A stretch of 64,000 nt of DNA from Escherichia coli (lineage in GTDB: Bacteria; Pseudomonadota; Gammaproteobacteria; Enterobacterales; Enterobacteriaceae): the NCBI RefSeq assembly GCF_050920415.1, contig NZ_CP169309.1, one strand, 5' to 3'. Positions 56,540 through 63,341 of this stretch are shown in pieces; position 1 is the stretch's first letter, and every line of letters begins with the position of its first letter. The notes beneath the pieces were generated by a model. The model had not been told where the DNA came from. It ran no database searches and saw only the letters and a program-made list of their open reading frames with translations. A program made the position numbers and the translations under genes.

Positions 56540-56594
56540 AGACGCTAACAACGCATCAGGCAATCACGCGCCTGACGCGTCATCCGGCAACGCT

Positions 56595-59812: not shown

Positions 59813-60823
59813 ATGAAGGCTGCAGTTGTTACGAAGGATCATCATGTTGACGTTACGGATAAAACACTGCGCTCACTGAAACATGGCGAAGCCCTGCTGA
59901 AAATGGAGTGTTGTGGCGTATGTCATACCGATCTTCATGTTAAGAATGGCGATTTTGGTGATAAAACCGGCGTGATTCTGGGCCATGAAGGCATCGGTGT
60001 GGTGGCAGAAGTTGGCCCCGGCGTTACCTCATTAAAACCAGGCGATCGCGCCAGCGTGGCGTGGTTTTACGAAGGATGCGGTCATTGCGAATACTGTAAC
60101 AGCGGTAACGAAACGCTCTGCCGTTCAGTAAAAAATGCCGGATACAGCGTTGATGGCGGCATGGCGGAAGAGTGCATCGTGGTCGCCGATTACGCGGTTA
60201 AAGTGCCGGATGGCCTGGACTCGGCGGCGGCCAGCAGCATCACCTGTGCGGGCGTCACCACCTACAAAGCAGTAAAACTATCAAAAATTCGTCCAGGACA
60301 GTGGATTGCTATCTACGGTCTTGGCGGTCTGGGCAACCTCGCCCTGCAATACGCGAAAAATGTCTTTAATGCAAAAGTGATCGCCATTGATGTCAATGAT
60401 GAGCAGTTGAAACTGGCAACCGAAATGGGTGCAGATTTAGCGATTAACTCACGCACCGAAGACGCCGCCAAAATTGTGCAGGAAAAAACCGGTGGCGCTC
60501 ACGCTGCGGTGGTGACAGCGGTAGCTAAAGCTGCGTTTAACTCAGCGGTCGATGCCGTTCGTGCAGGCGGGCGTGTTGTAGCAGTCGGTCTGCCGCCGGA
60601 GTCTATGAGCCTGGATATCCCACGCCTTGTGCTGGATGGCATTGAAGTGGTCGGTTCGCTGGTCGGCACGCGCCAGGATCTAACCGAAGCCTTCCAGTTT
60701 GCCGCCGAAGGCAAAGTGGTGCCGAAAGTCGCCCTGCGTCCGTTAGCGGACATCAACACCATCTTTACTGAGATGGAAGAAGGCAAAATCCGTGGCCGTA
60801 TGGTGATTGATTTCCGTCGCTAA
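59813..60823 (+). CDS. adhP: Zinc-dependent alcohol dehydrogenase AdhP
   Basis: 336 aa from the internal ATG with AAGGAGGA Shine-Dalgarno; zinc-ligand motif GHEGIG and Rossmann GLGGLG. Confidence 0.95.
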
Positions 60824-60832
60824 GAGGCCCTT

Positions 60833-60867
60833 GCTGCGACTGCCATGTTTGAGTCGCAGCCTGTTTT
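60833..60867 (+). terminator. Intrinsic terminator after adhP
   Basis: Hairpin gctgcgact...agtcgcagc followed by a T-tract. Confidence 0.6.
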
Positions 60868-61008
60868 GCGAGACGCTTTCCGCAATTTCACTCTTCTTCT
60901 TTTCCTCCCCCATCTTTCCCCTCACAATTCGCGAAAACGTAGCGAAATTTGTTGCGCTGCACGGAACAATAGTGATAGTGTTCCTTTCGAGGGAACAAGG
61001 ATGAAGAG

Positions 61009-61287
61009 ATGATAATGAATTTCAGACACAAGGGATTGCGTGACTTGTTTCTTCTCGGCAAAACCTCCGGCGTTATACCGACGCAAATCAAACGATTACG
61101 CCACCGACTCGCTGTGATTGATGCAGCAAGCTGTCTTGCTGATATCGATATGCCCGGTTACCGACTACACCCGTTAAGCGGCGATCGTGATGGAATTTGG
61201 GCGATATCTGTCTCGGGCAACTGGCGAATCACATTTGAATTCGTCAATGGCGATGCATACATACTGGATTACGAGGACTATCACTGA
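61009..61287 (+). CDS. HigB-like (RelE/ParE superfamily) toxin, intact
   Basis: 92 aa with the family hallmark ([10 protein letters not shown]..., [29 protein letters not shown]..., DYEDYH); stop overlaps the yddM start in ATGA. Confidence 0.7.
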
Positions 61288-61571
61288 TGAAAATGGCCAA
61301 TCATCCCCGCCCGGGGGACATTATTCAGGAATCACTGGACGAGCTGAACGTCAGCCTGCGCGAGTTTGCCAGAGCAATGGAAATTGCGCCCTCAACGGCA
61401 AGCCGATTGCTGACCGGAAAAGCCGCGTTGACGCCAGAAATGGCGATTAAACTTTCCGTGGTGATCGGCAGTTCGCCGCAAATGTGGCTGAATCTACAAA
61501 ACGCCTGGAGTCTGGCAGAGGCAGAAAAAACGGTAGATGTGTCGCGATTACGCCGTCTGGTTACGCAATAA
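61287..61571 (+). CDS. yddM: HigA-like HTH antitoxin YddM
   Basis: 94 aa; Xre-type HTH ([33 protein letters not shown]); translationally coupled to the toxin gene. Confidence 0.8.
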
Positions 61572-61622
61572 AAAAATGGCACCTTATAAAGCGCCATTTG
61601 AAACTGATGGCAAACGCAAAAT

Positions 61623-61720
61623 TGCCTGATGCGCTACGCTTATCTGACCTACACGTTCACTGCAATCTATTGGATTTGAACGGTTTGTAGGCCGGATAAG
61701 GCGTTCACGCCGCATCCGGC
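61623..61720. repeat. REP (repetitive extragenic palindromic) elements between yddM and fdnI
   Basis: REP-type imperfect palindromes: tgcctgatgcgctacgcttatctgacctaca and gtaggccggataaggcgttcacgccgcatccggc. Confidence 0.6.
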
Positions 61721-61745
61721 ATGAACAAAGTGTACGTTGTCTACA

Positions 61746-61779
61746 ATAAAAAATGGCGCTTTTTACAGCGCCATTTTCA
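61746..61779 (-). terminator. Intrinsic terminator of the fdnGHI operon (bidirectional-looking)
   Basis: Perfect 9-bp stem (aatggcgct / agcgccatt) flanked by an A-tract and a T-tract, immediately 3' of fdnI. Confidence 0.55.
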
Positions 61780-61798
61780 GCTTAAAGTTCAAAAGAGA

Positions 61799-62452
61799 TT
61801 ATATCCCTTCTTCACTCTCTTTTTTCGCTTCTGCCTTTTCGATTTCACGATACCAGCGTGGATGGTGTTTCTTCGCCCAACGACGGCTCACCTTCCCTTC
61901 GATCATCCCTTTAATCGACCCTTTCACCCAGAATGCCATATACATATGAATCAGGATGGCGTGGATCAGGATGATACCCGCAGCCGCGTGAATCAACAGG
62001 CTATAACGGACAACCTGCATCGGGAAGTACTGCGCAAAGTACGGACGCCAGATAATCACCCCGGTTACCAGCAGCACGAAAATCATGCTCATGATCGACC
62101 AGAACATCATCTTTTGCCCGGCGTTGTACTTACCAACATCCGCCACTTTGTGTTCATTGCCTTTTAATACTTCGACAATGTTCAACAGCCACGGAATATC
62201 TTTCTTATCCGGGATGTTGTGATGCACAAAACGCACAAACATAAACATCAGCGCGACGAAAATCGCAATGCCGAAGAACGGGTGCAAAATGCGTCCCATC
62301 TGCGGCGTACCGAAGGTTTGTGTCAGCCATTGCAGCGTCGGGAAGAAGAACGAAATCCCGGACAGCGCTACCAGGAAGAAGCAAATCACCACGGTCCAGT
62401 GACAGGCGCGATCAATAAACTTGGTGCGCACAATCATTTTCGACTTACTCAT
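61799..62452 (-). CDS. fdnI: Formate dehydrogenase-N gamma subunit (cytochrome b556)
   Basis: 217 aa from the internal ATG ([19 protein letters not shown]...); four transmembrane helices with haem-ligand histidines. Confidence 0.9.
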
Positions 62453-63329
62453 GATGATCCTCCTCGTCATCGTCCACTTCCTTATTCGGGCCAATACCGA
62501 TGTAGTGGAAAATTAACCCGGCAAAAGTGGCGATAAAGCCAGCCGCTGCCAGCGGTTTCAACGCGCCTTTCCACAGATTTACCGATGTATCGATCTTCGG
62601 ATCTTTCGGCAGACCGTGATACAGCTCCGGCTGATCGGCGTGATGCAGCACGTACATGACGTGCGTACCACCGACCCCTTCCGGATTGTAGACACCAGCA
62701 TGTTCGTAACCACGCGCTTTCAGTTTCGCCACGCGCTGTTCCGCCAGCTCCAGCATCTCCTTCTTGGTGCCGAAGTGGATAGCCCCGGTCGGACAAGTTT
62801 TCACACAAGCCGGTTCCTGACCAACGCTGACGCGATCGACGCAGAGTGTGCATTTATATACACGGTTATCCTCTTTGTTGAGGCGTGGAATATTAAACGG
62901 ACACCCGGCAATGCAGTAACCACAGCCGATGCAGTTTTCCGACTGGAAATCGACAATCCCGTTAGCGTACTGAATGATCGCACCAGCAGACGGGCACGCC
63001 TTCAGGCAGCCCGGATCTTCACAGTGCATACAACCGTCTTTACGGATCAGCCACTCCAGCTTGCCGTTCTGTTCGGTTTCGCTAAAGCGCATCACCGTCC
63101 AGGACTTGGCGCTCAGATCGGCGGGGTTATCATAAACCCCGACGCAGTGCCCCACTTCATCACGGATATCGTTCCACTCCGAACACGCCACCTGACAGGC
63201 TTTACAGCCGATACAGGTGGAAACGTCGATAAGTTTCGCGACTTCTGCTTTGTAATCACGCACCTGAGAAGGCGGCGTGATGGAGTTAGTTGCGGACCTT
63301 TTGATAATGTCCTGCGTTTCCATAGCCAT
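62445..63329 (-). CDS. fdnH: Formate dehydrogenase-N iron-sulfur subunit
   Basis: 294 aa; four ferredoxin-type Cys clusters; C-terminal transmembrane anchor. Confidence 0.95.
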
Positions 63330-63341
63330 CTGTTCGCCCCC

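Follow-up and report, generated by a model that had tools for sequence, protein, structure and literature searches.

The 64-kb stretch of Escherichia coli DNA analyzed here (the window) contains a site where two genes, yddM (+) and fdnI (-), converge with 227 bp between their stop codons. Coordinates are positions in the window; the plus strand is the sense strand of yddM and the minus strand that of fdnI. The coding sequence of yddM (61287..61571, +) is documented by the open reading frame (ORF) list, the RefSeq annotation of NZ_CP169399.1, and a match to the Pfam family HTH_3 (E 7.6e-10), and its product is a helix-turn-helix antitoxin of the HigA family. The coding sequence of fdnI (61799..62452, -; ORF list and annotation), with its stop codon at 61799-61801, encodes the gamma subunit of formate dehydrogenase-N. 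An earlier note on this DNA had named both genes and placed them convergently. This is borne out by the annotation of identical and near-identical E. coli genomes, including that of strain MFDS1022581 (NZ_CP169399.1), which is 100% identical to the window and names yddM and fdnI. The spacer contains two repetitive extragenic palindromic (REP) sequences, which together form a bacterial interspersed mosaic element of the first type (BIME-1), and two copies of a hairpin, L and R, which bracket it. We consider it likely that two transcription units, fdnGHI and yddM (the latter accompanied by a higB-like toxin gene in this strain), share their 3' end in this interval, and that an old fdnI terminator was duplicated there around the BIME-1, with the function proposed below.

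By its sequence organization, the REP pair with its 34-nt linker is a complete BIME-1, which reads as external motif, Y REP, linker, Z1 REP, and external motif. The A-side external motif (TTTGAAACTGATGGCAAACGCAAAATT; 61597..61623, +) recurs beside the BIME-1 between yhaC and rnpB. It is followed by the Y-type REP (GCCTGATGCGCTACGCTTATCTGACCTAC; 61624..61652), which was identified by pattern scan and folding and has its GTAG head on the minus strand; two substitutions, TCTGACC for TCAGGCC, have damaged its palindrome in this strain. The linker, termed the L linker in BIME-1 (61653..61686, no strand assigned), contains an IHF-type core at 61660-61678, which reads CAAATCCAATAGATTGCAG on the minus strand (IHF, integration host factor). 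The Z1-type REP (GTAGGCCGGATAAGGCGTTCACGCCGCATCCGGC; 61687..61720) is a perfect palindrome with its GTAG head on the plus strand. The B-side external motif (ATGAACAAAGTGTAC...ACAAT; 61721..61747, +) is common to the BIME-1 copies at yhaC-rnpB, rsmS-mscK, and yiiF-fdhE. The two REP-type palindromes of the earlier note were recovered by the pattern scan, as a Z type at 61687-61720 and a Y type at 61624-61652. In a REP consensus search, the 30-nt core of the Z REP matched the consensus exactly, with 0.00 chance matches expected in 64 kb. Beyond this pair, the pattern scan found no other canonical REP in the window. A REP-like palindrome at about 56545-56590 (cgcatcaggca..gcctgacgcgtcatccggca) does not match the full REP pattern.

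As defined by Ton-Hoang et al. 2012, a BIME-1 combines z1 and y with a long conserved linker, often with an IHF site, and is present as a single copy per locus. The element has the inverted Y and Z1 REPs and the long L linker of this architecture, and it is the one BIME-1 in the window. Its REPs carry the GTAG/CTAC head, belong to a genome-wide repeat (the REP query matched a median of 38-39 places per E. coli genome), and are both extragenic, inside the 227-bp yddM-fdnI spacer. It is also like the BIME-1, RIB, and RIP elements of Bachellier, Gilson and Hofnung, of Boccard and Prentki, and of Oppenheim in its inverted Y and Z1 REPs, in the heads that face a linker of about 34 nt, and in its position at the 3' ends of transcription units. 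The linker aligns with the 33-36-nt linkers of the BIME-1 copies at yhaC-rnpB, avtA-ysaA, yiiF-fdhE, rsmS-mscK, and livF-ugpB. Rfam matches were below threshold: one REP hairpin partially matched naRNA4 (38.2 bits, threshold 59.5) and the L linker weakly matched ES036/CssrF (24.9 bits, threshold 37.6).

The A-side flank has a narrower distribution. Its exact pattern matched only the fdnI-yddM and yhaC-rnpB loci in metagenome contigs, and a related form of the motif adjoins REP43, REP297, and REP258 of K-12. The left flank was considered as a general BIME-1 motif and rejected: the REP part of a 44-nt query accounted for its median of 24 places per genome, and the flank alone has a median of three places per E. 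coli genome.

Direct copies of one hairpin lie on either side of the BIME-1. Copy L (61570..61599, -) has the structure A7-ATGGCAC-CTTATAAA-GCGCCAT-TTT and was detected as direct repeat D1, by the minus-strand terminator scan, and by folding; the stop codon of yddM (TAA, 61569-61571) overlaps its A-tract. Copy R (61748..61777, no strand assigned) has the structure A6-ATGGCGCT-TTTTAC-AGCGCCAT-TTT and was detected as inverted repeat I4, by folding, and through orthologous hairpins. Copy R is the perfect hairpin with A and T tracts that had been reported previously; its arms (61750-61760 and 61767-61777) are 11 nt long and 100% complementary, with a 6-nt loop and a core flanked by A6 and T4. L (61571-61599) and R (61748-61776) are direct repeats 177 nt apart with 25/29 identical positions (86%), and hairpin plus BIME-1 form a unit of 178 bp. 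Hairpin copy L, the 34-nt linker, the external flanks (61597-61623 and 61721-61747), and the strand asymmetry of the hairpins had all been overlooked in the earlier note.

Chance occurrence in an AT-rich spacer is hardly a credible explanation of these palindromes and repeats. A generic terminator scan showed no enrichment in the window, with three sites against 2.0 expected, in line with chance. However, the 30-nt REP core is matched exactly where no match is expected, L and R are alike over 25 of 29 positions, and orthologous hairpins occur across genera. In addition, R folds to -15.4 kcal/mol on the plus RNA (z -5.3) and -18.8 kcal/mol on the minus RNA (z -4.8), values that none of 200 shuffled sequences reached.

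The two hairpins differ between strands. L folds to -14.0 kcal/mol (z -3.8) on the minus RNA versus -8.2 kcal/mol (z -1.6) on the plus RNA. A G->A change in L leaves an A/C mismatch in the plus RNA, but in the minus RNA just a G.U pair. When only the hairpins are considered, R has -13.7 kcal/mol with a U6 tail and L has -10.9 kcal/mol with a U7 tail on the minus RNA (fdnI sense). On the plus RNA (yddM sense), the corresponding values are -12.3 kcal/mol with a UUUUCAG tail for R and -5.6 kcal/mol with a UUUGAAAC tail for L. Both copies therefore present a GC-rich stem-loop with a U-tract on the minus RNA, as in intrinsic terminators, and fdnGHI would have two of these in tandem. The same strand asymmetry was found in every one-unit allele examined, including that of E. 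albertii.

On the basis of these folds, R is predicted to be the primary intrinsic terminator of fdnGHI and, with four U residues, a moderate terminator for RNA in the yddM direction. L is predicted to be a good intrinsic terminator on fdnI-sense RNA only and a poor one on yddM-sense RNA. The folds predict strong termination toward fdnI from both copies, and moderate termination toward yddM from the distal copy R only. The earlier description of a perfect bidirectional-looking terminator is too strong: the hairpins are canonical toward fdnI, and bidirectionality appears only partial, as toward yddM R has only the UUUUCAG tail and K-12 RNA passes R to a Rho-dependent end.

The spacer exists in several allelic states among E. 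coli genomes. Allele frequencies are based on 60 evenly spaced genomes from a ranking of 5,426 and on one coverage count, rather than a full census. The first state has no BIME and one hairpin in a 49-bp spacer (O111, ST131, WP4), the second has one BIME and two hairpins in a 227-bp spacer (the window, O157, Nissle), and the third has two BIMEs and three hairpins in a 406-bp spacer (K-12). The one-unit and no-unit alleles each account for about 37% of the sample and the two-unit allele for about 17%; 2069 of the 5,426 genomes (about 38%) cover at least 80% of the one-unit query. A further 5% or so carry an IS200 within the no-unit allele, and in about 2% the fdnI-proximal hairpin is deleted. 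Overall, about 37-42% of genomes have no BIME. The single-hairpin allele reads AAAAAATGGCGCTTCTTAAAGCGCCATTTT, with the loop TTCTTAAA.

Natural variants of these alleles were also observed. In strain G5, and similarly in BL21, a 33-bp deletion has removed hairpin R (equivalent to about 61750-61785), such that the BIME-1 and hairpin L come right after fdnI. In NZ_CP091664.1, a 712-bp IS200 immediately follows the yddM stop codon and directly abuts the A-tract of the single hairpin (..gcaataa|IS200|aaaaaaaatggcgc..; about 61571 in the window). Compared with K-12, strain CDE2901-yvys has the Z1 REP core (61687-61720 equivalent) in the opposite orientation between the arms CATGCCGGAT..ATCCGGCATG, a palindrome-mediated flip polymorphism.

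The element is already known in K-12 MG1655 as REP120 (1552072-1552168, equivalent to about 61622-61718), which is orthologous to the BIME-1 of the window and has the same Y-L-Z1 order, linker, and flanks. The earlier observation is correct in substance, but it is ordinary and already catalogued. The K-12 locus differs in that it has two tandem units and three hairpins, against one unit and two hairpins in the window, and it is without the higB-like toxin gene that the window has upstream. Its Y REP is an intact palindrome and that of the window is damaged. The Z1 head is TCAT in place of GTAG in both K-12 tandem units (61683-61690 equivalent; 2553-2882 of the K-12 stretch). Since GTAG is the tetranucleotide conserved at the 5' end of REPs, these K-12 copies may escape recognition as REPs. 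Canonical BIME-1 are present in single copy per locus, whereas the number of copies at fdnI-yddM ranges from 0 to 2, since a terminator is part of the repeat unit. The two copies of K-12 are split by a copy of the terminator and derive from unequal exchange between hairpins, unlike amplification of the BIME-2 type.

The history of the duplication can be outlined by comparing the hairpins. Of the 23 closest loci, 20 have a hairpin that starts 16-22 nt past the fdnI stop codon; they are from Escherichia, Salmonella, Citrobacter, and Intestinirhabdus. The conserved form of this hairpin is AATGGCGC..GCGCCATT followed by a T run, with variants that include AAAGGCGC..GCGCCTTT and T:A<->A:T changes in the stem. 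In Citrobacter sp. FP75, one hairpin serves both fdnI and yddM. A cryptic Escherichia lineage has exactly the hairpin of the E. coli no-unit allele, and this hairpin matches L at 26 of 31 positions and R at 28 of 31, while L and R match each other at 25 of 31. Because it is closer to both copies than they are to each other, and because it is conserved across genera, the single hairpin looks ancestral and probably represents the original state. From these comparisons, we infer that evolution proceeded from a single hairpin to the BIME-bearing state: the BIME-1 would have inserted at the ancestral terminator and duplicated it on arrival. The hairpin copies would then have served as substrates for unequal crossing-over, giving rise to the two-unit allele of K-12. 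Consistent with this, the middle hairpin of K-12 is a chimaera whose left half comes from R and whose right flank comes from L, and this, together with the GTAG->TCAT change common to both units, indicates that the second unit arose by unequal exchange between hairpin copies. We also considered whether the single-hairpin allele is a recent deletion between L and R. This was rejected: its loop (TTCTTAAA) is not a chimaera of L on the left and R on the right and is identical to that of the cryptic Escherichia lineage.

BIME-1 is a dispersed repeat that is thought to be mobilised by the REP-associated transposase RAYT (TnpA-REP), and fdnGHI is an anaerobic operon induced by nitrate. In the model we propose for the window, R (about -13.7 kcal/mol, U6) would terminate fdnGHI 21 nt past the fdnI stop codon, and L, with its G.U-rescued stem and U7, would act as a back-up terminator that keeps read-through from fdn out of antisense yddM. 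In the other direction, L is crippled on yddM-sense RNA by the A/C mismatch and the UUUGAAAC tail, and the yddM transcript would therefore run through the BIME-1. The BIME-1 would fold within this RNA into a structure of -43 kcal/mol capable of blocking 3' exonucleases. The transcript would then be stopped in part at R (U4), and the remainder terminated by Rho inside antisense fdnI. A further possibility is that the BIME-1 influences the processing of 3' ends or is bound by IHF or gyrase. All termination efficiencies in this model are predictions.

Experimental data from K-12 were carried over by homology, with positions mapped to the window from the fdnI stop codon. They include a Rho termination region at 1551885(-), antisense to fdnI, with a Rho score of 9.25 and p 1.6e-12 (Adams et al. 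2021, Supplementary file 2), which corresponds to about 61905. On this basis, the Rho termination region for yddM-direction read-through is predicted at 61850..61960 (+), antisense to the 3' end of fdnI, and the Rho-dependent end of the K-12 RNA is located about 130 nt beyond R. A preprint supplement reports a bicyclomycin-sensitive K-12 transcript (1551402-1552035) that starts within the R hairpin, as well as an in vitro Rho-binding peak (1551845-1552131) that overlaps REP120. Together, the termination region, the transcript, and the peak agree with leakage past R toward yddM in K-12. A strong 3' end at 1552652(-), with 29,107 reads, was also recorded in K-12 by Term-seq (Adams et al. 2021); it lies about 30 nt within yddM, beside CCCCGCCCGGGGG (about 61317 in the window), and suggests premature termination or processing near the start of this gene.

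Several observations weigh against the duplicated-terminator model. The mapping of 3' ends had been proposed as a check, and the curated Term-seq data give no 3' end at either hairpin or elsewhere within the K-12 spacer: the aerobic tables of Adams et al. 2021 are empty for 1551900-1552499. Given the anaerobic, nitrate-dependent induction of fdnGHI, however, tables from aerobic cultures are not a fair test of the fdnI terminator. A simple terminator scan of the window gave about as many sites as expected and did not list R, because the A:U-extended stem of R absorbs the T run. The generic promoter and terminator scan found no promoters. The Y REP of this strain barely folds, at -2.7 kcal/mol for its RNA versus -13.2 kcal/mol for the K-12 copy, and the IHF consensus (WATCAANNNNTTR) is not matched in the linker at one mismatch or fewer. 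With respect to the direction of evolution, the hairpin-BIME-hairpin arrangement is also found in E. albertii and in the representative of a second Escherichia species. Both allele states are thus old, or have been moved by recombination. The single-hairpin allele could have persisted as an old polymorphism, been imported by recombination, or, less likely from its sequence, arisen by deletion. Finally, the functional statements depend on folding rules and on homology to K-12.

The earlier note had interpreted the REPs and hairpin as a typical arrangement for insulating transcripts and stabilising mRNA. The arrangement is indeed common, as REPs are found in about 30% of the convergent gene pairs of E. 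coli (preprint 10.64898/2026.03.23.713779), and a role in insulation and stabilisation is plausible, notably for the hairpin. That the REP pair and hairpin are a module selected to insulate the convergent transcripts and stabilise their mRNAs nevertheless appears rather unlikely to us. The RNA structures of the REPs are very stable, at -43.5 and -45.1 kcal/mol (z about -5.5), with -43.5 kcal/mol (z -5.4) for the whole BIME-1 on the plus RNA; the Z1 REP has -19.5 and -21.3 kcal/mol on the two strands. Further in favor of such a module, the arrangement has persisted since before the split of E. coli and E. albertii, the Rho-binding sequence overlaps REP120, and the preprint associates REPs between convergent genes with higher expression of both genes and describes REP325 as a terminator and stabiliser. 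On the other hand, the copy number varies between 0, 1, and 2, and about 37-42% of E. coli genomes have a 49-bp spacer that keeps one hairpin with no BIME. Hence the BIME is dispensable for termination, and the REPs are not required as transcript insulators. The palindrome of the Y REP has been lost in this strain and the GTAG head of Z1 in K-12. According to the same preprint, terminal REPs do not lengthen half-lives genome-wide.

The BIME-1 may instead act on DNA, as an IHF site of the RIB/RIP type and/or a site for gyrase or Pol I that forms a topological barrier between converging polymerases, though we regard this as improbable. The convergent location would suit such a role, and the core of the L linker is recognizable, with two mismatches to the canonical CAAATTCAATATATTGCAG and 0.07 chance matches expected. 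The IHF core carries a T->C change and deviates by one further base relative to canonical copies. Across the window, the IHF consensus has 69 matches against 77 expected and is not enriched, and the linker itself goes unmatched, as described above. A literature search for IHF chromatin immunoprecipitation at fdnI-yddM found nothing usable and found no report of binding at the locus, and the element is dispensable in many strains. Judged by its sequence, the predicted site is a doubtful target for IHF.

We also evaluated whether the hairpin region represents a small RNA, either derived from the 3' untranslated region (UTR) of fdnI or similar to STnc320 and ending at the terminator. Small RNAs near terminators are common, and Rfam gave a match to STnc320 at 61731-61783 (30.7 bits, E 0.002 in a 1.3-kb search). 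This score is well under the STnc320 threshold of 50, however, and the stem of the Salmonella fdnI terminator is unlike the STnc320 consensus (ACAAGGCGCTAC..GTAGCGCCTTGT), so the match reflects generic similarity between terminators rather than orthology. There are just 21 nt between the fdnI stop codon and the hairpin, and K-12 Term-seq lists no 3' end there. A small RNA is accordingly very unlikely, and the duplicated fdnI terminator remains our preferred explanation of the hairpins.

The locus can be compared with other known systems. In the account of Ju et al. 2019 (SEnd-seq) given in bioRxiv 10.1101/2022.10.23.513370, the bidirectional terminators of convergent genes are unlike intrinsic terminators and are driven by polymerase collisions. 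So far as that account goes, fdnI-yddM is similar in having a hairpin-encoding element common to a convergent pair, but it differs in that its hairpins, read toward fdnI, have the canonical form of intrinsic terminators. The preprint describes REP325 of the yjdMN operon as a dual element, a partly Rho-dependent terminator and mRNA stabiliser. It likewise consists of REPs clustered in a 3' UTR, and Rho is involved nearby. However, it is an array of 12 Z2/Y hairpins (BIME-2 type) between tandem genes, whereas a single Y/Z1 BIME-1 with separate intrinsic terminators lies between convergent genes here.

Another parallel is the 3' flank of rnpB. Tandem terminator-containing repeats were reportedly described downstream of rnpB by Reed and Altman in 1983. 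The BIME-1 of this flank, which lies within these repeats, is a sister copy that shares the external motifs, is bracketed by two copies of the local terminator (AAAAACCCGC..GCGGGTTTTT), and has empty alleles with one terminator. Like fdnI-yddM, the locus shows tandem copy-number variation of a terminator-containing unit. It differs in the sequence of the target hairpin and in its tandem unit of about 108-113 bp, which consists of the rnpB 3' end and the terminator and is without the BIME. The empty rnpB-yhaC alleles (O157, ST131) have one terminator, AAAAACCCGCCGAAGCGGGTTTTT. In filled alleles, a degenerate terminator copy precedes the BIME-1 (18/24 identical to the empty site) and another follows it (23/29); these copies are 14/22 identical to each other. 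The flank as a whole is highly polymorphic, with either no BIME and one terminator or a BIME-1 between terminator copies, and the unit of about 110 bp (rnpB 3' end and terminator) is present in one to three copies.

A similar pattern occurs at rsmS(ybaM)-mscK (REP43 of K-12), where ATGGGGTCGCTAAATGTCCCCT and CGGGGCAACTAAATGTTGCCCCCT flank the BIME-1 and agree at 17 of 25 positions; at this locus the divergence of the empty allele prevents a clean comparison. In total, direct copies of a locus-specific hairpin flank the BIME-1 at three of about eight loci inspected, two of which have clean empty alleles with a single hairpin. No flanking hairpin duplication was evident at avtA-ysaA, cobB-ycfZ, or yiiF-fdhE, and one further locus was ambiguous. 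No empty allele was found at livF-ugpB, where the BIME is nearly fixed in 4629 genomes. In addition, the IS200 insertion on the single-hairpin allele uses the same hairpin edge as the BIME-1 junction; IS200 is an element with a Y1 transposase, and about 5% of genomes share this insertion. The sister loci and the IS200 edge suggest that insertion is directed to terminator hairpins and duplicates them whole, which is a lead rather than a result.

We tentatively propose, while holding it to be somewhat improbable, that the BIME-1 subfamily with these flanks integrates at intrinsic-terminator hairpins and duplicates the whole A-tract, hairpin, and T-tract as a target-site duplication of about 22-34 nt. 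The RAYT transposase or a related single-stranded DNA nuclease, for example, could cleave a palindromic target at equal positions relative to the hairpin on both strands, and the resulting stagger, equal to the length of the palindrome, would later be filled in. If true, such targeted insertion would explain the location of REPs and BIMEs at the 3' ends of genes, the two terminators of this locus, and the variation in copy number of the unit. A literature search found no mention of hairpin duplication around BIME-1, with the BIME papers of the 1990s outside its coverage.

As first flagged, the region carries little weight, being a catalogued REP element (REP120) beside a conventional terminator. 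While the REP/BIME-1 element is known already, the added value lies in the allelic series and in the footprint of terminator duplication, the latter as a lead. The natural series comprises alleles with 0, 1, and 2 BIME-1 units, the allele with hairpin R deleted, and the IS200 allele. It could be used directly to measure how, between convergent genes, a BIME-1 affects termination, read-through into antisense, and the stability of mRNAs, a question that is still debated. Likewise, duplicated terminator hairpins around a BIME-1 are a testable footprint of how REPs and BIMEs insert and could explain their 3'-end location.

Some minor observations concern the surrounding genes. Upstream of yddM, and overlapping its start by one base, is an ORF for a HigB-like toxin of the RelE family (61009-61287, +; Pfam PF05015, E 1.4e-17). 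The region that contains it is present in about 1311 of 5426 E. coli genomes, is missing from K-12 and O157, and is frameshifted in WP4-S17-ESBL-03, which leaves yddM as an orphan antitoxin in most strains. The published work that turned up on yddM and fdnI consists only of an amplification covering these genes in the long-term evolution experiment. Blount et al. is relevant to 60800-64000 of the window (fdnI, yddM, adhP, maeA). Finally, the livF-ugpB spacer of strain GPEC1185 (the REP258 site of K-12) aligned over 892 bp to a 399-nt query and carries a Phd/Doc toxin-antitoxin pair.

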